Source: Eubacteriales bacterium (GTDB taxonomy: Bacteria; Bacillota; Clostridia; Oscillospirales; CAG-272). From it: a stretch of 64,000 bases of DNA. Below are positions 1,310 through 10,526 of this stretch, piece after piece. The DNA is taken from positions 731 through 64,730 of the forward strand of contig JAZORO010000070.1 of assembly GCA_045656605.1 (NCBI GenBank), in the 5' to 3' direction. The translations under genes and the position numbers were made by a program. Below the pieces are notes generated by a model. That model was not told the DNA's origin. It ran no database searches and was given only the letters and a program-made list of their open reading frames with translations. Each line of letters opens with the position of its first letter. The stretch's first letter is position 1.

Positions 1310-1341
1310 CAAACCACTAAAATTTGAAAGGCGGTGAGTAT

Positions 1342-2919
1342 ATGACAGGTGTAATTTACGCTCGGTATTCCTCGGATAATCAGCGCGAGGAGTCGATTGA
1401 GGGGCAGATTCGTGAGAATACTGCTTTTGCCGAGAAGAACGGCATTGTTATCGTTGGGCACTACATAGATAGAGCCGTTTCTGCGAAAACGGACAATCGC
1501 CCCGAGTTTCAGCGTATGATACGTGACAGTGCTAAAAAGACATTTGACGTAGTCATAGTTTGGAAGCTTGACCGCTTTTCTCGTAACCGCTACGACAGTG
1601 CGAAATACAAGGCTGCCTTGAAGAAAAATAACGTTCGCGTTGTTTCGGCAACCGAGGCAATCTCGGAAGGTGCAGAGGGCATAATTCTTGAATCGGTGCT
1701 TGAAGGCATGGCGGAATATTATTCAGCCGACCTTGCGGAAAAGGTAACACGGGGGTTAACCGAGAATGCCTTAAAATGCCGTTTTAACGGTGGTAACGGT
1801 CTTCCTTACGGTTATACCGTTGACGAGGAGAAGCATTTTCAAATTGACCCCTTAAAAGCTCCCATAGTGGCTGAAATATTTGAGCGTTACGCTCACGGTG
1901 AATCTATTGCCGAGATAGTACATAGCCTGAACGCACGTGGACTCAAAACACAAAAGGGTAAAGCCTTTAATCACGGCACACTCAACCGAATGCTCGGTAA
2001 CAAATCCTATATGGGCGTGTATCACTACAACGGCATTGAAATTCCGGACGGTGTTCCTGCGATAGTGTTGGAAGATACCTTCAAGGTAGTCGAAAGGCGA
2101 ATGGCACAAAATAAGCACGCATCAGCCAAGAACAAGGCGGAAGAAAAGTACGTGCTTACAACCAAGCTTTTCTGCGGAAAGTGCCACACAATGATGGTCG
2201 GAGACTCCGCGCAAAAGAAAAACGGTAATATCTACCGCTACTACAAATGCGCCAGTGCAAAGAGGCACGAATGCGATAAAAAAGCCGTTCGCAAGGAATG
2301 GATTGAGAAGCTTGTACTGAACAAGGTTATCAAGGTCTTGTTTGATGACGAAGCACTTGATAAGATTGCTGACGAAATAGTCGCTCTGCTTGACGAGGAC
2401 AACAAGGTTATACCGCTTCTTGAGGCTCAACTCAAGGAAGTTCGCAAGTCTATCGACAACGTGATGAAGGCTATCGAGGCAGGAATTATCACTCGTTCAA
2501 CTAAGGCAAAGCTTGAGGAGCTTGAAGCCGAGGAAGAGCAAATCGAGCTTAATATTCTCAAAGAGCAGACAAGCACTCCCAAGCTCACGAAAGAACAAAT
2601 TTTATTTGCTTTGGACAAATTCCGTAAACTTGACTTAACAATCGAGGCAAATAAAGAGCGTTTGATTGACAGTCTTGTGAAATGTGTCTTACTTTATGAT
2701 GATAAGCTCGTTATAACCTTTAATTTCAAAAATGAGCCTGTAACTGTTCCCACAAGCGATGAGCTTCTAGCAATAGAAGGCAGTTCGGATATTGAAGCAT
2801 TTGCTTCACCAAAGCAATCCAATCCGAACTCAGATTGGGTTGCTTTTCTTTTTTGCGACTGTTGCGAGGAGTTTTGCTCGGCGACGCTATCGCAAAGAGC
2901 TCTGAGATACGCCGGATAG
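1342..2919 (+). CDS. large serine recombinase (resolvase/invertase N-domain plus recombinase and zinc-ribbon domains)
   Basis: The N-terminus 'VIYARYSSDNQREESIEGQ' carries the catalytic Ser motif, and 'VWKLDRFSRN' is present. There is a Cys cluster, CGKCHTMM...YYKCASAKRHEC, followed by a coiled-coil region. The start was set at the ATG after GGCGGTGAG. The C-terminal tail is atypical (see findings). Confidence 0.9.
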   Translation: MTGVIYARYSSDNQREESIEGQIRENTAFAEKNGIVIVGHYIDRAVSAKTDNRPEFQRMIRDSAKKTFDVVIVWKLDRFSRNRYDSAKYKAALKKNNVRVVSATEAISEGAEGIILESVLEGMAEYYSADLAEKVTRGLTENALKCRFNGGNGLPYGYTVDEEKHFQIDPLKAPIVAEIFERYAHGESIAEIVHSLNARGLKTQKGKAFNHGTLNRMLGNKSYMGVYHYNGIEIPDGVPAIVLEDTFKVVERRMAQNKHASAKNKAEEKYVLTTKLFCGKCHTMMVGDSAQKKNGNIYRYYKCASAKRHECDKKAVRKEWIEKLVLNKVIKVLFDDEALDKIADEIVALLDEDNKVIPLLEAQLKEVRKSIDNVMKAIEAGIITRSTKAKLEELEAEEEQIELNILKEQTSTPKLTKEQILFALDKFRKLDLTIEANKERLIDSLVKCVLLYDDKLVITFNFKNEPVTVPTSDELLAIEGSSDIEAFASPKQSNPNSDWVAFLFCDCCEEFCSATLSQRALRYAG

Positions 2920-3131: not shown

Positions 3132-4289
3132 ATGAACAACGGATGCAGAATAAAAGCGGAGCTGCTCTCGTACGGGGTGCGAATCTCCGACGAGGCAATA
3201 AAGCGCTTCTCCTACCCGTACCTTGTCAAAAGGCGAGCGTACAGCAACACGGACAGTGCCGACTTCTTCTCAATAGATGCGCCTCAAGAAATCATAATTC
3301 TACCTGAGAATATCATTGCGGGCGTAACTCTCAACCACACCTCTCCGTGGCGCATTGAGTACAGCGAAAACGGCTACTATCTGCAAAACTCAAGCACTCT
3401 CGAAAGGTGCGACATCACGTTTACGTTAAAGCCCGATTTCTACGGAATGAAGATATACGACGGTATCAATGCGGAGAACGTAATAACCTATATATTCGGG
3501 CATACGCTCGGCATTTTTGTTAACACGTCCTGCTACTTCGCAACGCCGGAGCGTCACTGTAGATACTGCTCCATACGCTCCAACGGAGCACGTCCAAAGG
3601 ACAACGTAAGAGTGCTCGACCGTGAGCTTATCGCATCTGCGGTGAAGCTGGCAATCGAAAATGACAACGGATTTGTAAGCAGCATATTCATAAGCGGGGG
3701 GAATTTCACGGGCTTTGACGAAAGCTTTTCACGGTATGCGGACATTGCTAAAGGCGTTATGGAAGCCGTGCGCAATTCAGGCAGGGATATCCGAGTTATG
3801 TTAAGTGTTTTCCCGCCCGAAAACAAGGAATTGATTGCTCTTTTATGCGACACGGGTCTTGACATCCTGTTAGGAACAGAGGCGTTCAGTCCCGAAGCAT
3901 ATTCACGCTTCTGCCCCGGGAAATCAAAGGTGCTCTCAAAGGAAAGGCTCAAGGACGTGCTTCGTTACGCAGTCGATATACTTGGCAAAGGGCACGTATA
4001 CAGCATAGTAATACACGGTCTTGAGGACGACGAGGCGGTGGTCGAGGGTGTCGAAGAATACGCAAAGATGGGCGTATGCACAATTGTAAACGTGTTGCAC
4101 CTTGATCCCGGCACGGAGATTATCGATATGGGTGTATCTATACCCTCCCCCGAGTCAATCCTCAGAGTCGCAGGCAAGGTCTCAAAGATATACAGTGAAT
4201 ACGGCTTTGACTCATCAGTCGCATACGGCGGAAGAAGCTCGTTCGATGCGGAGTGCTCTGTTCTTAGTCCGGAGGAATTTGAAAAATGA
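3132..4289 (+). CDS. radical-SAM-like enzyme, copy A1 (non-canonical CX8CX2C cluster motif)
   Basis: 'NTSCYFATPERHCRYCS' places Cys at residues 134, 143 and 146, with an aromatic residue before the last Cys. 'FISGGNFTG' is GGE-like. 'HGLEDDE...VNVLHLDPGTE' resembles the C-terminal half of BioB/ThiH-type radical SAM barrels. It is a paralog of the 5443-6603 protein. Confidence 0.6.
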   Translation: MNNGCRIKAELLSYGVRISDEAIKRFSYPYLVKRRAYSNTDSADFFSIDAPQEIIILPENIIAGVTLNHTSPWRIEYSENGYYLQNSSTLERCDITFTLKPDFYGMKIYDGINAENVITYIFGHTLGIFVNTSCYFATPERHCRYCSIRSNGARPKDNVRVLDRELIASAVKLAIENDNGFVSSIFISGGNFTGFDESFSRYADIAKGVMEAVRNSGRDIRVMLSVFPPENKELIALLCDTGLDILLGTEAFSPEAYSRFCPGKSKVLSKERLKDVLRYAVDILGKGHVYSIVIHGLEDDEAVVEGVEEYAKMGVCTIVNVLHLDPGTEIIDMGVSIPSPESILRVAGKVSKIYSEYGFDSSVAYGGRSSFDAECSVLSPEEFEK

Positions 4290-5407
4290 AAATGAACAAA
4301 AGGATTTATCTTTATATAATAACCGCACTCGTCCTGCCAAGCATATTCCAAGAGGCTCTGATACGCCTCGGAGCTGTCGACGAGGAGCGCAAATGGCTTA
4401 TATACCTGATTCTTACTGCGTCGATAATTGCCGTGGTTCTGCTCGCAGAGTTCGTTATGTGGATCGTATATCTGTGTAAGACCCCATCGGTAGAAACAAT
4501 GCTTGAGAGAATCGACAGAATCGGCGAAAAATACGTTCTCTTCGGAGAAACGAAGATGTTCAACGTGCCGAACTCCGAGTTCGATATGTTCTACGCAAAG
4601 AACGTAAAAAACACCGAGAGCATATTCCGCAACGCACGCCCGCACACCGTGTATCACAGCCTATCTGCCAAAAAGCATTTGAGCTGGGTAGAATTTATTT
4701 TCTGGGATTTTTTAAGAGATTTAAAGGAAGAGCTCGGCTTTAACGTTATGATAGCCTTCCACGAGGATGAAAAAGGACGTGAAAGCGGAGAAAACACGGG
4801 CTCCGAAAGATACAAGGAAATGTGCCGTGAGTTCGCTCAAATCGCAAGAAACCTCATCGGAAAAGACATTAAGATAATAAATGAAGAGGAGTACCTCAAG
4901 CGTCACCCGAGATTATACTGCGACTTTCACAAGGTGTACGTAGAGAAGCTGCTCGAAAGCGCCAAGCTTGTTGCAGAGGGCAAGAGCGACTACAAGGGAT
5001 TCTGCCGAGGACTATCGTTTGCCGAGTCGGTCTTCCCTCTCATTGCCGCCGCAAAGAAGCACGACAGAATCTACGCAATAGACAGAGAAACGGCATTCAA
5101 TATATGGAACTCTCCGCCCCTCGATACGATAAAGAAGGAAGAGAGCATATACTTTATTCTTGCAGAAACTCTGAAGGACCCGGATAACAACCCATTGCAG
5201 ATATTCACCGCAGACGGCACGCTGAATATAACCGACGACCCCGAAACAGTAAGGAAAAAGCTCTTGGGAATGCCGGAGATTACAAGGCAGATAATGTATA
5301 ATATTATCTCGACGAATACTCCTTACACTCCGTCTGTCGAAGGATTCGATGATGTCGATACGGTTTATGAGTGCATAATGTTTATAAAGAATAAATACGC
5401 TATTTAG
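4286..5407 (+). CDS. membrane-anchored protein, copy B1; cytoplasmic domain resembles the class-Ic aaRS (TrpRS/TyrRS) catalytic fold
   Basis: There are two N-terminal hydrophobic helices. Its ATG overlaps the A1 stop (ATGA) and a GGAGGAA SD lies 8 nt upstream. Segments parallel TrpRS motifs (see findings), but HIGH and KMSKS are degenerate. Confidence 0.4.
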   Translation: MKMNKRIYLYIITALVLPSIFQEALIRLGAVDEERKWLIYLILTASIIAVVLLAEFVMWIVYLCKTPSVETMLERIDRIGEKYVLFGETKMFNVPNSEFDMFYAKNVKNTESIFRNARPHTVYHSLSAKKHLSWVEFIFWDFLRDLKEELGFNVMIAFHEDEKGRESGENTGSERYKEMCREFAQIARNLIGKDIKIINEEEYLKRHPRLYCDFHKVYVEKLLESAKLVAEGKSDYKGFCRGLSFAESVFPLIAAAKKHDRIYAIDRETAFNIWNSPPLDTIKKEESIYFILAETLKDPDNNPLQIFTADGTLNITDDPETVRKKLLGMPEITRQIMYNIISTNTPYTPSVEGFDDVDTVYECIMFIKNKYAI

Positions 5408-5442
5408 TAAATAATTATTTACATATTAAAGGATTGAGCCAA

Positions 5443-6603
5443 ATGCATACAAGCAATATAAGGCTGAAGGCCGAGATATTATCAGAAGGAATTTCTTTCT
5501 CCGCACGTGCGCTTGAGAATCTGCCGAGCGACGTACTTGTAAAAAGGCGTGCATATGGAAACCCCGATGAAATAAACGGAACAGAGCTTTCACTTCCGCA
5601 GGAGCTTGTGCTTTTGCCGGAGGGGATAACGGTGGGAATAAGCGCCTCGCTCCTTGCCCCCTTCACTGTCGACTATACGGGGGAAAGGTTTGTCCTTCTG
5701 CGTAACGACGAGTTTAAATGCGAGATAGGCTTTACAAGGTCCCCCGAGTTCTACGGCGCAATATGCGACTCGGGCGAGAAAGTCGAAAACGTGCTCACGT
5801 ACGTATCAGGACATTACCTCGGAATATTCGTAAATACGGCGTGCTACTTTGCCTCCCCCGGAAGGCAGTGCAAGTACTGCTCTATTAGAGCGAACTCCCG
5901 CCGACCCGAAGCGAATCTAAAGAAGGTTACGAAGGAATCCGCAACAAGCGCCGTGAGGCGTGCCGTTGAGCTCTCACGAGATAAATTCGATTTAGTCTTC
6001 ATCAGCGGTGGAAACTTCACAAACAGGGATGAAAATTTTGTTTATTACAGAGACATCGCCTTATCTATAAGGAGCGAACTTAATACCATCGCACCCGAAA
6101 TCGAGGTGGTCTTAAACGTTTTCCCACCGGACAAGCTTGCGCTTATTGATACGCTTTGCGGCAGTGGAATCAACGTGCTTGTCAGCACTGAGGTGTTCTC
6201 TGAAGAGGGATACGCATATCATTGCCCCGGAAAATCCAAAATATTGCCTAAAAAAAGGCTATATACCGTGCTCAAAAGGTACGTAAAAGCACTCGGAAAG
6301 GGTCATGTTTACAGCATAGTAATCCAGGGTCTCGAAAGCACGGACAGTCTTATCGATGGCATATGGGACTATGCAGAAAGGGGAGTGTGCACCGTAGTAA
6401 ACGTATTGCATCTCGACCCTGACACCGAGCTTGCGAAGGAAGGGGCCAAGCGCCCCGACGCCGACGATATACTTAGAGTAGCCAAAGAGCTTGAGAAGGT
6501 ATATTCAAAGCACGGCTTTGATACAAGGCGTATTTACGGCGGAAGAAATTCTTTTGATGCCGAATGCTCTTTAGGACTTATAAGCAAGAAAGGAGATAAC
6601 TAA
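5443..6603 (+). CDS. radical-SAM-like enzyme, copy A2 (CX8CX2C)
   Basis: 'NTACYFASPGRQCKYCS' is present. With the ATG at 5443 the three Cys fall at residues 134, 143 and 146, the same as in A1. It aligns along its full length with A1 ('GKGHVYSIVI.GLE', 'GVCT.VNVLHLDP.TE', 'YGGR.SFDAECS'). Confidence 0.6.
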   Translation: MHTSNIRLKAEILSEGISFSARALENLPSDVLVKRRAYGNPDEINGTELSLPQELVLLPEGITVGISASLLAPFTVDYTGERFVLLRNDEFKCEIGFTRSPEFYGAICDSGEKVENVLTYVSGHYLGIFVNTACYFASPGRQCKYCSIRANSRRPEANLKKVTKESATSAVRRAVELSRDKFDLVFISGGNFTNRDENFVYYRDIALSIRSELNTIAPEIEVVLNVFPPDKLALIDTLCGSGINVLVSTEVFSEEGYAYHCPGKSKILPKKRLYTVLKRYVKALGKGHVYSIVIQGLESTDSLIDGIWDYAERGVCTVVNVLHLDPDTELAKEGAKRPDADDILRVAKELEKVYSKHGFDTRRIYGGRNSFDAECSLGLISKKGDN

Positions 6604-7712
6604 TGAATAAAAAGCTGTTGATATACGTGCTTATGACATTGATTGTTCCTACGCTTACGTCTGAGCTGCTCTCAACATTCTTTGAATTCAACTTTGGCTC
6701 GCCTATCGTTAACGTGCTGATACTGTCTCTGGCGATTATCTTGCTTATACTTATAGTTGAGCTAATCGTGTATTTCTTCCCAAGATTCACGGGTAAGAGC
6801 AAGGCTGCGATAAGCACAAAAATCAAAGAAATCTCCGCTCCGTATAAGCTCCCCTCGGGCAAGCCGTTCTATACCGAGGACTCAAGACTACTCGCCGCTC
6901 TTGCAAGCAAAGACAGCTATAAAAAGCTACCTCTCTTAAGCTACACCTTCTTCTTCGTTGTGATGGTACGGGAGTATTTCAGCTGGATAGAATTCGTCAA
7001 CCTCACACTGCTTGCAAAGCTCGGGCGTGAGCTCGATATTGAGGTAGTAATAATACTCGAAAGCAACGAAAGCTCGCTCGATTCATCCACCCACAGAGCA
7101 AGAGATGCGGCGAGATTCAAGGCGGAAGAGGAAACCTACAAGAGAATTATTACCTCTATATTCGGCGGTAAAGTAACGATAAGAAGCGACTCGTATTACC
7201 GCAAATCGGATTCAAAAAAATACGCTCTTGAATTCCATACGCTTTACGTAAAACGAGTTCTCGGATACGTAAGGGAGCTTGAAGAGGGGAAAATCGATTA
7301 CTCGGCGTTAAGACACAGATTTGCATATCTTGAAGCTATATTCCCCATTATATGTGCGGCAGACAAAAACAAGAGCAAGGAAGTACTCTTCATACTCGAC
7401 AGAGAGAGCTCGAAGGAAACTTGGTCGAGCGCACCTCTGAAGGACAAAATAGAAAAAACGGGAATATACTTTATAAATGCGGCTACGCTGGATGCCGACG
7501 AGAGCACGGGGAAGAATCCCGTTTCTATGCTCAACCTGCTCGCACCGCATATAAAAATCAAAGAACAGCTAAGCGTCCTCTCCGATAAATCGAAGCAAAC
7601 GATACTCTATCTGTTACGAGCGGCGACCGACGACTACGAGCAATACGACGAGAACAAAGACGTCGAGATAACGATGATAATCCAAAAAATCAAGGCAAAG
7701 TACAACATCTGA
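6603..7712 (+). CDS. membrane-anchored protein, copy B2 (divergent paralog of B1)
   Basis: There are two N-terminal TM helices. Its start overlaps the A2 stop (TAATG) and follows an AAGGAG SD. It shares blocks with B1: 'SW(V/I)EF', 'E..FP(L/I)I.AA.K', '(I/L)DRE' and the C-terminal 'IK.KY.I'. Confidence 0.4.
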   Translation: MNKKLLIYVLMTLIVPTLTSELLSTFFEFNFGSPIVNVLILSLAIILLILIVELIVYFFPRFTGKSKAAISTKIKEISAPYKLPSGKPFYTEDSRLLAALASKDSYKKLPLLSYTFFFVVMVREYFSWIEFVNLTLLAKLGRELDIEVVIILESNESSLDSSTHRARDAARFKAEEETYKRIITSIFGGKVTIRSDSYYRKSDSKKYALEFHTLYVKRVLGYVRELEEGKIDYSALRHRFAYLEAIFPIICAADKNKSKEVLFILDRESSKETWSSAPLKDKIEKTGIYFINAATLDADESTGKNPVSMLNLLAPHIKIKEQLSVLSDKSKQTILYLLRAATDDYEQYDENKDVEITMIIQKIKAKYNI

Positions 7713-7722
7713 GGGTCTTTCT

Positions 7723-8877
7723 ATGAATATTAAAATATCCTCATCCGTAAGAGGCGTAAAGCCTATATATATGGGGGATGATTGTTTTCCCATCATATTC
7801 TCAAACATCGGTATGTCAACCGAGTGCGACTCCTTCTCCCGAGAACTTAGCAAGGTACGCGCCGTCGTCGCCGGAGGCGCAGATGCGGTATCCGACCTGA
7901 CGCTCATCGGAGATATCGAGGACGAGCAAAAAAGAATGCTCGAGAGCGTAAGCGTGCCCTTCGCATCAGTGGCGGCGTATGAAGCGTTTTCAAAGGCAAG
8001 AGGCTCCGAGGGTAAAATCCGAGCCGAGGACTTCATAAGAGTATTCGAAAAGCAGGCAGAGCGCGGAGTTGATATAATAACTCTGCACGCCACCGTGTTT
8101 TCATCGGATAATGAAGAGTTGGGAAGGGGCAAAAGAATTATTCCCTGCACCAGCCGAGGCGGAGCTATGATGCTCGAGCTGATGCGTAAGGGGGGGTACG
8201 AAAATCCCTTCTATACATACTTCGACGACATCATTTCGGTATGTAAAAAATACGGCACGTGCATAAGCCTCGGCCCCACCTATCGCCCGGGCTCTGTCGT
8301 AGACGCAGAATTTTCGGACAACCCGCATTTTACCGAGCTGTACCGTATGGCGAAGCTGGCAAAAAAAGCGACGGACGCCGGTGTCGGCATTGCAGTCGAG
8401 GGGATAGGTCACGCTCCGCTCGACAAAATCCCCGACCTTGTAAAAGAGGCGAAAAGAATAACCGGCAACGTGCCATACCGTGTTCTTAACGTAGCGACAG
8501 ATATCGCTATCGGCTTCGACCACGTTTCTTCAGCGATAGGTAGCTCCGTCGCCGTACAGTACGGCGCTGACAGCATAACAGCGGTAACACGCTCGGAGCA
8601 CCTCGGTATACCGACCGAGGTAGACCTCGTTGAAGCGGTAAGGAGCGCAAAGGTTGCGGCGTATTGCGGATATTCGGCAAGAACGGGTATACGAAAACGT
8701 GACGAGGAGATGTCACGAGCGAGAGCAGAGCGAGGCTGTATAGGGTGCTCCGAGGCAGCGCTTTTCCCCGAGCTTGTGAGCGAATATATCGAAAAAAACG
8801 GTATAGAAAAAAAGGACGCTTCCTGCACTATGTGCGGAGATTGCTGTCCGTTCGTTATTCTAGGTAAGAAAGGATAA
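7723..8877 (+). CDS. ThiC-family radical SAM enzyme, short divergent paralog
   Basis: ThiC-like blocks are present: 'NIGMSTE', 'ITLHAT', 'TSRGGA', 'ENPFYTYFDDIISVCKKYG..ISLGPTYRPG', 'EGIGHAP', 'TDIAIGFDHVSSAIG' and 'VTRSEHLGIP'. The C-terminal Cys cluster is 'CTMCGDCC'. At 384 aa it is shorter than typical ThiC. Confidence 0.7.
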   Translation: MNIKISSSVRGVKPIYMGDDCFPIIFSNIGMSTECDSFSRELSKVRAVVAGGADAVSDLTLIGDIEDEQKRMLESVSVPFASVAAYEAFSKARGSEGKIRAEDFIRVFEKQAERGVDIITLHATVFSSDNEELGRGKRIIPCTSRGGAMMLELMRKGGYENPFYTYFDDIISVCKKYGTCISLGPTYRPGSVVDAEFSDNPHFTELYRMAKLAKKATDAGVGIAVEGIGHAPLDKIPDLVKEAKRITGNVPYRVLNVATDIAIGFDHVSSAIGSSVAVQYGADSITAVTRSEHLGIPTEVDLVEAVRSAKVAAYCGYSARTGIRKRDEEMSRARAERGCIGCSEAALFPELVSEYIEKNGIEKKDASCTMCGDCCPFVILGKKG

Positions 8878-8883
8878 TGGCGT

Positions 8884-9426
8884 ATGTCTGACAGTGTTAA
8901 AGAAGAAGTATGGGATCTTTACGACGCAAGAGGTGTGAAGACCGGACTCGTCGTATCGAGGAGCGATAGGATTCCCGAGGGGCTATACCACCCGGTTGTG
9001 CACGTATGCGTCTTCAACGAAAAGGGAGAAATGCTCATACAAAAGAGAAATGCAGACAAGGCTCTTGAGCCCGACAAGTGGGACGTATCGAGCGGCGGAG
9101 GAGGTATATGCGGTGAAGAAATATACGAATCTGCCGAAAGAGAGCTCAAGGAAGAGCTCGGGATAATTGCAGATTTATCTAACACGCCCCCGCACGTTAC
9201 TCTGTTTTTTGAAACAGGATTTGATACTTATTATATTATCAAGGTAGACTCTCACACCTTCTCTCCGAGTATTCAGAAAAAAGAGATACAGGCTGTAGAT
9301 TGGGTGACAGAGGATAAGATTCTCTCTATGATAGAAAGCGGCAGCTTTGCGTCCTTCAAAAAGAGCTTTATATCTATGCTCTTCGAGCTGAAGGAAACAA
9401 GAGGCTCTCTATCATATAACGTATAA
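8884..9426 (+). CDS. Nudix hydrolase
   Basis: The Nudix box is 'GGGGICGEEIYESAERELKEELGI' (GX5EX7REUXEEXGU). It starts 6 nt after the ThiC-like stop. Confidence 0.85.
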   Translation: MSDSVKEEVWDLYDARGVKTGLVVSRSDRIPEGLYHPVVHVCVFNEKGEMLIQKRNADKALEPDKWDVSSGGGGICGEEIYESAERELKEELGIIADLSNTPPHVTLFFETGFDTYYIIKVDSHTFSPSIQKKEIQAVDWVTEDKILSMIESGSFASFKKSFISMLFELKETRGSLSYNV

Positions 9427-9489: not shown

Positions 9490-10425
9490 TTAATACAAAT
9501 GCTCGTATATTCCGCCGGGAATGAACTCTCTTATGAGCGAGTTATCCGGTACACGGGACTCGTCTATCGGGTATATCTCCTTCATAGCCTCAAGGACTAT
9601 ACTTGCGTACGGATCCTTCTTTGCTAACGAGTCGTCGATAAGCGAGAGAGCTCTATCTCTCATTACTCCGGGCTCAAACGGGTGGAAGGTATTGAAAGCG
9701 AGGTCTGCAGTCTCCTTATATGGGTAGAGATAAACGTCCTCGGCGTTCAAAACGCCTCTCCACATCGAGAGAGTTCTCTCGGCGTCAGCGCCCCTATATA
9801 TACTGTCTCTCACCATACGCCTTACGAATCTCAGCTTCCTGCCGGAGAGAATCCTCTCTTCCCCCTTGTTTATATTCGTCGATACGCTGACGAAAAGACG
9901 CAGTATTCTATCCGTCGGTATGCCTGAATAGATTTTCGGATTCAAGGCGTGCAGACCCTCTATGATTACGCACCCGTCGGGCATTGCAGGATAGCTTCTT
10001 TCTTCAACACGCCTCCCCTCTTTAAAATCATAGCGAGGAAGTGTGAAGCTCTCGGAGTTCGCTATTTTCATAAGCGTATCCGAGATAAACGAGAGGTGCA
10101 AAGCCTCCGGACACTCGTAGTCAGGCGTTCCGTCCGAATGCATAGGGTACTCGGGCGAGCCGGAATCCTTATAGAAGTCGTCCAAAGATACGACCATAGC
10201 ATCCTCGCCCCTTGCAACTATTGCATCCTTCAACAGGTTTGCAGTAGTAGTCTTGCCCGAGCCGGACGGTCCCGCAAGCAGTATTATCTTTATTTTTTCG
10301 TGCCCCGTCACGTAGTCTGCAAGCCCACCTATCCTAAAGCGATAAGACTCCTCGGCATCCATAATCATACGGTCGGGGGCTTCTTTCGCCTCTTTGTTCA
10401 GTAAATCAACATCAATCTCAGCCAT
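9490..10425 (-). CDS. uridine kinase-family nucleoside kinase (P-loop)
   Basis: It has the Walker A motif 'LAGPSGSGKTT' and 'VIIEGLHALNP', and its length is typical for this family. The start was set at MAEIDV, which follows GGGAGGAG. Confidence 0.7.
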   Translation of the reverse strand: MAEIDVDLLNKEAKEAPDRMIMDAEESYRFRIGGLADYVTGHEKIKIILLAGPSGSGKTTTANLLKDAIVARGEDAMVVSLDDFYKDSGSPEYPMHSDGTPDYECPEALHLSFISDTLMKIANSESFTLPRYDFKEGRRVEERSYPAMPDGCVIIEGLHALNPKIYSGIPTDRILRLFVSVSTNINKGEERILSGRKLRFVRRMVRDSIYRGADAERTLSMWRGVLNAEDVYLYPYKETADLAFNTFHPFEPGVMRDRALSLIDDSLAKKDPYASIVLEAMKEIYPIDESRVPDNSLIREFIPGGIYEHLY

Positions 10426-10526
10426 AGCTCCTCCCACAATTTACAGAGAGCATAATCTTTATTCTGTCAGCTATATTTCGCTTCGCTGTACAAATATTAT
10501 ATGTACGAAAAAGGAAGGTGTGAGTG

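Follow-up and report, generated by a model that had tools for sequence, protein, structure and literature searches.

Expanded cysteine spacings in radical S-adenosylmethionine (SAM) enzymes are catalogued in RadicalSAM.org, which lists those of QueE, HmdB, and the YhcC/Elp3-type enzymes (PMC9477430). The spacing CX8CX2C is listed there for Megaclusters 4-6-1, -3, -5, and -6, and Megacluster-4 is the biotin and thiazole synthase subgroup (PMC9477430). The same spacing is found in NCBIfam under NF045502 ('variant_rSAM'), a domain-level model that carries just the name 'radical SAM protein', and this family probably corresponds to the CX8CX2C Megaclusters 4-6-x. We analyzed a stretch of 64,000 nucleotides (hereafter, the window) of Eubacteriales bacterium (GenBank assembly GCA_045656605.1, contig JAZORO010000070.1, positions 731 to 64,730 of the forward strand), in which two paralogous genes, A1 and A2, encode proteins with this spacing. 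The initial annotation, which was made from the sequence alone, did not include the spacing among the known variants; it was already present in both resources, and the CX8CX2C motif is not new. A1 and A2 are very probably genuine radical SAM enzymes. Their clade, with its partners, is undescribed, and the surrounding gene cassette is a more interesting object than the motif.

The two genes and their motifs were assigned as follows (positions are those of the window).
3132..4289, + strand: A1, variant radical SAM protein, 385 amino acids (NF045502, PF04055, and fold model)
3531..3569, + strand: CX8CX2C motif of A1 (C134, C143, and C146, with the aromatic Y145 preceding the last Cys), putative ligands of the SAM cluster
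5443..6603, + strand: A2, paralog of A1, 386 amino acids from the ATG at 5443 (NF045502 and PF04055)
5842..5880, + strand: CX8CX2C motif of A2, CYFASPGRQCKYC (translation)

Translation of 3531-3569 gave CYFATPERHCRYC, in frame with the open reading frame 3132-4289, and that of 5842-5880 gave CYFASPGRQCKYC, in frame with the open reading frame 5443-6603. The non-canonical motif that the initial annotation had placed in both paralogs was thus confirmed, and the canonical CX3CX2C spacing is absent from both, a departure that the radical SAM superfamily is known to tolerate (PMC9477430). The two further segments it had pointed out, SGGNFT and NVLHLDPGTE, were also found as described (FISGGNFT at residues 186-193 and NVLHLDPGTE at residues 320-329). 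For A2, the ATG at 5443 has a ribosome-binding site (AAAGGA) 9 nucleotides upstream and is most likely the start; use of the in-frame TTG at 5434, which abuts that site without spacing, is unlikely. With the ATG start, the motif cysteines are numbered identically in both proteins (C134, C143, and C146). The two proteins are 47% identical over the full length. The bare pattern C-x8-C-x2-C means little alone: it occurred in 14 of the 2635 open frames of at least 150 amino acids in the genome, where composition alone predicts 6.3. Once an aromatic residue was required ahead of the last Cys, three frames were left, namely A1, A2, and one apparently non-coding antisense frame. The motif of A1 and A2 is more than a chance occurrence because it is conserved and is positioned in the fold, as described below.

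Profile scores were judged against the gathering score of PF04055 (29.5 bits) and the cut-offs of NF045502 (125 bits) and TIGR04043 (303.7 bits). With NF045502, A1 scored 207.9 bits (profile positions 3-356 of 357) and A2 scored 207.4 bits (3-357). With Pfam PF04055, A1 scored 43.2 bits, above the gathering score (44.9 bits when the genome itself was scanned), and the alignment in both A1 and A2 begins at profile position 9, past the first cysteine. The profile search of the PDB by sequence gave marginal matches only, to NifB, MqnE, and BioB (E-values of 5e-4 to 1e-2). When A1 was aligned by hhalign with the RlmN of its own genome, C134 fell on the first canonical Cys with a 5-residue gap, at a low probability (9.6%); the alignments with the pyruvate formate-lyase (PFL) activase and the NrdG-like protein of the genome were spurious or partial and did not cover the motif. 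The radical SAM call of the initial annotation, which had suggested a profile search as a check, is supported by the NF045502 scores of about 208 bits for both proteins, together with the fold and the conserved cysteines.

The AlphaFold2 model of A1, built from a 32-sequence alignment, had a predicted local distance difference test score (pLDDT) of 93.8 and a predicted template modeling score (pTM) of 0.92. It consists of an N-terminal domain, which reaches to about residue 120, and a partial barrel of six beta/alpha units, (beta/alpha)6, with core strands at residues 125-129, 184-188, 221-225, 244-250, 289-295, and 316-321; the motif is located in the long loop following core strand 1 (125-129). 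In the Foldseek search of the PDB with this model, the best 23 matches were all radical SAM enzymes, and the fold matches include RlmN, PFL activase, lipoyl synthase, HydG, NifB, and ThiH. The search of a viral structure library gave matches to generic radical SAM proteins only, in agreement with the PDB. Structure prediction, which had been suggested as a check, therefore came out in favor of the call as regards the fold and the place of the motif in it. The BioB/ThiH-like partial TIM barrel of the initial annotation was recovered as a barrel (six core strands), but the likeness to BioB and ThiH is only loose and the auxiliary Cys cluster is missing. The weak sequence matches (BioB and MqnE) and the fold matches (HydG and ThiH) are compatible with Megacluster 4-6.

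Residue conservation was counted in 161 full-length representatives of the family, and motif spacing in 175 collected proteins. The three cysteines are conserved in homologs (C134, 161/161; C143, 161/161; C146, 160/161), and the aromatic residue before the last Cys, noted earlier as a feature shared with the canonical motif, is kept as Phe or Tyr at position 145 in 159 of the 161. Of the 175 proteins, 139 have eight residues (X8) separating the first two cysteines; X9 was seen in 10, X5 in 8, X7 in 7, and X10 in 4. The other conserved segments of A1 are as follows.
3132..3482, + strand: N-terminal domain, residues 1-117, two short helices and a small beta sheet (covered by NF045502; separate model)
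3687..3701, + strand: FISGG (186-190) at the end of core strand 2, in the position of the GGE motif (G190 in 159/161, G189 in 108/161)
3879..3881, + strand: E250 at the end of core strand 4, in the position of the ribose motif (Glu in 158/161, Asp in 3/161)
3912..3923, + strand: C261-P-G-K264 signature after strand 4 (K264 in 161/161, P262 in 158, G263 in 159, C261 in 144/161)
4017..4025, + strand: G296-L-E298 at the end of core strand 5, in the position of GXIXGXXE (G296 in 159/161, E298 in 148/161)
4098..4115, + strand: H323-L-D-P-G-T328 after core strand 6 (G327 in 111/161, Ser or Thr at 328 in 131/161)
4224..4241, + strand: C-terminal tail Y365-G-G-R-S-S370 (Y365, G366, G367, R368, and S370 invariant in the clade)

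The near-invariant G190, E250, G296, and E298 are each located where a core strand terminates on its C-terminal side, the region through which radical SAM enzymes touch SAM. All of the family-invariant residues are retained in both A1 and A2. On the strength of its conservation, K264 may well serve in catalysis or in binding of the substrate. No additional conserved set of cysteines was found in the 161 members: C316 is variable, and C261 was rejected as a cluster ligand because it is kept in just 89% of them. Within the A1/A2 clade, L322 and T328 are invariant, as are the clade-specific KRRxYxNxD, H124, and R154-P155; in the wider family, the tail residues R368 and S370 are kept in 86 and 96 of the 161, respectively. 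The column of G366 in the tail, Gly in the clade of the window, holds Cys in 61 of the 161 family members; in the low-probability hhalign alignment, the RlmN residue opposite its neighbor Y365 is the C-terminal catalytic Cys. Among the five extra residues of the motif loop, an aromatic residue is kept at the second and third positions. The insertion in QueE leaves the cluster and SAM binding intact. By analogy with the Burkholderia QueE, the five-residue insertion in A1 and A2 probably shapes the surface around the cluster and leaves the chemistry unaltered.

The initial annotation had recognized nothing in the first 130 or so residues, and this still holds: when residues 1-117 of A1 were modeled separately (pLDDT of 91.6), the fold search against the PDB gave nothing significant (best E-value, 0.89). 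To judge from this model, the N-terminal domain may have a fold without a solved representative. It is specific to the family, being within the NF045502 model and retained in the sister clade (see below), and K33, R34, R35, Y37, N39, D41, P51, and E53 are its clade-invariant residues.

A1 and A2 belong to a rare clade within a sizeable family. The HMMER search of 1.84 billion representatives of 50%-identity clusters gave 2111 relatives at E<=1e-3 and 524 at E<=1e-30, of which five representatives of the A1/A2 clade scored above 499 bits and the next one scored 344; a word-indexed search of 5.8 billion protein clusters gave about 25 close relatives only. Of 401 genomes sampled from the phylum, 15 had a family member above the cut-off, some with two or three nearby copies; of 41 related genomes (24 of the same genus), 1 did, namely the window's own. 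Around A1 and A2, the following genes were assigned.
1324..2919, + strand: large serine recombinase, upstream of the cassette (Resolvase, Recombinase, and Zn_ribbon_recom domains)
4286..5407, + strand: B1, membrane-anchored partner, whose start overlaps the stop of A1 (a homolog follows every A gene of the clade)
6603..7712, + strand: B2, partner of A2 (26% identical to B1)
7723..8877, + strand: short ThiC-like radical enzyme, 384 amino acids (PF01964, 322 bits; in 7/7 cassettes)
8884..9426, + strand: Nudix hydrolase, last gene of the cassette (PF00293, 55 bits; in 6/7 cassettes)

The B proteins have two N-terminal hydrophobic helices, as judged from sequence, and B1 matched no family of Pfam, NCBIfam, or PADLOC. 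A B homolog is found directly after all 10 A genes of the clade (two in the window, one each at the loci L001, L003, L005, L059, L060, and L061, and two at L012). The ThiC-like gene, whose product in the window is under every NCBIfam cut-off for ThiC and BzaB, comes after B throughout. L001 is the one cassette that carries an HD phosphohydrolase gene instead of the Nudix gene. A gene for a PRK08356/deoxynucleoside monophosphate (dNMP)-kinase-like protein is present in five of the seven cassettes and absent from the window and L005. L012 is doubled as in the window, in the order kinase, A1, B1, A2, B2, ThiC-like, and Nudix. The duplication of A is old, because the A2-type proteins form a separate clade with 100/99 support in the maximum likelihood tree. 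The surroundings of the cassette vary by locus, with the recombinase in the window, DnaB, PcfJ, and resolvase genes at L059, and an island with SNF2, FRG, and Ymh-type genes at L003; for this reason the cassette fits the cargo of mobile elements, with several copies on mobile DNA. At L001 and L005, the neighbors are ordinary housekeeping genes. Convergent with the end of the cassette in the window lies a gene for a 315-amino-acid protein of the uridine-kinase/PRK family (9490-10437, - strand). This Udk-like gene is a possible stand-in for the kinase or an unrelated neighbor; the dNMP-kinase-like proteins of the other cassettes are different and have 182-188 amino acids.

The wider family shows other gene neighborhoods. 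The sister clade (31-37% identity) is found in Acidobacteriota, Pedobacter, Magnetospirillum, Duganella, Allosphingosinicella, and an Agrobacterium plasmid, without B and the ThiC-like gene. At L016, L017, and L019, a B12-binding radical SAM protein of 712-883 amino acids (Pfam) is encoded directly upstream; at L021 (the Agrobacterium pusense plasmid), an upstream radical SAM protein of 750 amino acids is annotated and matches B12-type models of NCBIfam, and a Nudix gene and galE lie downstream of the variant gene. Open reading frames of like size precede the gene at L015 and L018, as far as a comparison of size can tell. At L016, L017, L019, L021, L049, and L052, which represent several clades, the variant gene directly adjoins, and often overlaps, a gene for a B12-binding radical SAM protein. 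In the phylum sample, the neighbors varied among NMT1/THI5-type binding proteins with parts of ABC transporters, PNPOx-like proteins, SAM synthetase, AsnC regulators, a radical SAM enzyme of the B12 type, and QueC-like and decarboxylase genes. Recurring themes of the family are an adjacent second radical SAM enzyme and paralogs in tandem. In other Bacillota genomes, at L051 (G310:C73) and L050 (G335:C17), two or three nearby NF045502 copies with the motif CHFWxNDKGCR[YF]C are interleaved with genes for NMT1/THI5-type binding proteins, ABC transporter parts, small PNPOx-like proteins, and SAM synthetase, which looks like a different, transporter-linked use of the variant family.

A few observations from other collections were also made. 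The sole match in the phage collection was L022 (MT835476.1, 'UNVERIFIED: Bacteriophage sp.'), with 23% identity and with TetR, FGGY sugar kinase, amino-acid ABC transporter, and ECF transporter genes as neighbors; the stretch looks bacterial rather than viral and is uninformative on phage carriage. In the plasmid collection, distant tblastn matches to A1 were found in 371 Klebsiella plasmids, mostly non-mobilizable. Outside the window, the same genome encodes a YhcC/TIGR01212-like radical SAM protein (C54:64598-65074, - strand) with the spacing C-x11-C-x2-C, CPNRDGKCGTGGCSFC; this spacing is listed in RadicalSAM.org for Megacluster-2-4-1 (PMC9477430).

The best explanation overall, which we consider likely, is that A1 and A2 are variant_rSAM enzymes performing a radical step on a nucleotide-like molecule within a mobile cassette. 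Their motif, family membership, fold, conservation, and gene linkage are shown by the analysis, whereas binding of a cluster, cleavage of SAM, the class of substrate, and the role are inferred. In this family, five residues inserted between the first and second cysteines convert the canonical CX3CX2C loop after core strand 1 into CX8CX2C. In the mechanism that we propose, C134, C143, and C146 would ligate three irons of a [4Fe-4S] cluster. SAM would chelate the fourth iron, stack on the aromatic residue 145, and be held by the C-terminal ends of strands 2 (SGG), 4 (E250), 5 (G296 and E298), and 6. Reduction of the cluster would cleave SAM to give the 5'-deoxyadenosyl radical, which would abstract hydrogen from the substrate. 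Binding of an anionic substrate is probably the task of K264 (of CPGK), R368, and the basic patch K33-R34-R35, which is specific to the clade. Each A may work in a complex with its own membrane-anchored B, as suggested by the translational coupling and co-duplication of A and B. The most likely job would then be one radical step in making or remodeling a phosphorylated, nucleotide-like small molecule. To our knowledge, ThiC and BzaA/B are the only characterized enzymes of the ThiC family, and both rearrange the nucleotide 5-aminoimidazole ribotide (AIR). A nucleotide-like substrate is suggested because the partners are a ThiC/BzaA/B relative, a Nudix or HD hydrolase, and a dNMP-kinase-like protein; we hold this part tentatively, at slightly less than even confidence.

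Several points weigh against this reading. A2 scored 27.2 bits with PF04055, just under the gathering score, which A1 exceeds; NF045502 was positive for both. The template modeling (TM) scores of the A1 model to solved radical SAM structures were modest (0.4-0.68). The Glu of GGE is replaced, by Asn or Val here and by Asn, Thr, Ser, or Val across the family. Literature searches gave no paper characterizing any member of the variant_rSAM family; those on MSMEG_0568, on the gene combination, and on the motif gave nothing past RadicalSAM.org, and the other CX8CX2C matches in the literature were plant DUF26, NUBP1, and anamorsin. PADLOC had no model for B or the ThiC-like protein, nor for A1 or A2 (at E<=1). 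As for the nucleotide-type substrate, it is read from the neighboring genes alone, and the function of the family is not uniform, because other clades adjoin transporters, PNPOx-like proteins, AsnC regulators, and nitrilases.

As to the biological role, the product of the cassette may be a secondary metabolite, an antimetabolite, or an analogue of a cofactor; a compound derived from a purine or from AIR would be an example. In the oxetanocin pair OxsB/OxsA, a radical SAM enzyme and an HD phosphohydrolase act on deoxyadenosine phosphates. The cassette would resemble this pair, and the membrane-anchored B would link production of the compound with its export or with an acceptor in the membrane. 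The constant ThiC-like gene (7/7), whose characterized relatives rearrange AIR, points in this direction, as do the HD hydrolase and kinase beside the radical enzymes at L001, the two N-terminal hydrophobic helices in B, and the co-duplication of A and B, which suggests two parallel or successive tailoring steps. However, the core cassette lacks a transporter, a resistance gene, and a regulator, and the same evidence fits a defensive role.

Such a role is somewhat unlikely in our estimate. The cassette would be a putative viperin-type anti-phage defense, in which a nucleotide analogue made by the radical enzymes is toxic or terminates chains, and the hydrolase (Nudix or HD) and kinase determine its phosphorylation state or protect the host. 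It is consistent with the sporadic occurrence (1 of 41 relatives carry the cassette), with the serine recombinase nearby in the window and the DnaB, PcfJ, and resolvase genes around L059, and with the position of the L003 cassette within the SNF2/FRG/Ymh-type island. The kinase of the cassettes resembles the kinase-like part of the NCBIfam model 'anti-phage dCTP deaminase', and PDC-S07, a candidate system in PADLOC, is a weak match to the Nudix protein. By contrast, A, B, and the ThiC-like protein matched nothing in PADLOC, the neighbors at L001 and L005 are housekeeping genes, and viperin systems have no membrane-anchored partner like B.

More speculative, and in our view doubtful, is a wider proposal: the A-B modules and the ThiC-like enzyme would form a membrane-associated mobile pathway that uses two unrelated radical SAM chemistries to make a novel nucleotide- or AIR-derived effector, anti-phage or antibiotic. 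If this were true, the CX8CX2C variant_rSAM family as a whole would gain its first function, and the co-duplicated A2-B2 would contribute a further tailoring step or accept another substrate.

It is very improbable that A1 and A2 keep the Fe-S cluster and do not cleave SAM, serving as structural, regulatory, or redox subunits for B or the ThiC-like enzyme, or that one paralog alone is catalytic. Duplicated enzyme pairs often hold one inactive copy, the Glu of GGE is absent, and A2 is under the Pfam cut-off. Many active radical SAM enzymes lack this Glu, however, both paralogs retain the three cysteines, the aromatic residue 145, G190, E250, K264, G296, and E298, and the A2-type clade is old and well conserved (100/99 support). 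Least probable of all is that C261 replaces C134 as a ligand, or that the four cysteines bind a closed cluster or a metal ion and the CX8 spacing is incidental: C261 is invariant in the clade and in the first 32-sequence alignment, but it is Ala, Ile, or Thr in 17 of the 161 representatives, whereas C134 is kept in all of them, lies directly after strand 1 where the canonical first ligand lies, and aligns with the first Cys of RlmN.

The variant_rSAM family is sizeable (the 2111 clusters at 50% identity given above) and yet is without a member of known reaction. The window is an informative entry point, with a rare clade, fixed odd partners, and two diverged A-B modules placed adjacently. Identification of the substrate would assign a chemistry to the family and could reveal a new nucleotide-derived metabolite or defense effector. 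Because Pfam alone misses A2 and many homologs, which are below its cut-off, such enzymes are under-counted in genome surveys.

The locus was finally compared with known systems, from the more distant to the closest. Viperins with a linked kinase and the OxsB/OxsA pair also combine a radical SAM gene with nucleotide kinase or phosphohydrolase genes on accessory DNA. However, they show no sequence-family relation to A (viperin-like structures first appeared at rank 49 of the fold matches), and they include neither a ThiC-like enzyme nor a membrane-anchored partner. BioB, ThiH, and HydG have a full (beta/alpha)8 barrel, with an auxiliary cluster in BioB and HydG, whereas A1 has six core strands and no such set of cysteines. 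RlmN, of the RlmN/Cfr group, gave the best E-value of the fold matches of A1 (3.3e-7, up to 337 aligned columns) at a TM-score of 0.42-0.47, and hhalign pairs the strand pair of A1 before the core ('FYG..G..VE..') with the N-terminal extension of RlmN. In the same hhalign alignment (9.6%), which is suggestive only, A1 has G127 and Y365 opposite the RlmN catalytic cysteines (equivalents of E. coli C118 and C355). An RlmN-type class A methyl synthase was rejected for A1 because both catalytic cysteines appear to be absent at these positions, with the low probability of the alignment to be kept in mind.

QueE of Burkholderia multivorans (CX14CX2C), HmdB (CX5CX2C), and the YhcC/Elp3-type enzymes (CX11CX2C) likewise carry the insertion between the first and second Cys and keep the CX2C with its aromatic residue. 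They are unrelated subfamilies with other accessory domains and substrates, and lack the A-type N-terminal domain and the CPGK signature. TIGR04043 (the MSMEG_0568 family), which contains the radical SAM protein of the nitrilase gene cluster Nit1C (PMC1199592), is distantly related to A1 and A2 within the same variant family. Its model matched A1 with 83.2 bits and A2 with 58.1 bits over most of the length, at an identity of about 24% and far under its cut-off. In the tblastn search of plasmids, homologs annotated as MSMEG_0568 were recovered beside a Nit6803-type nitrilase. Membership of A1 and A2 in this family was ruled out by the scores, together with the absence of a nitrilase neighbor from the cassette of the window. 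The closest described system is the NF045502 family itself, which A1 and A2 match end to end, including the N-terminal domain, the CX8CX2C loop, and CPGK. This family is broad and functionally mixed, and the clade of the window is a small, distinct branch of it, with invariant residues of its own and with B and the ThiC-like protein as partners.

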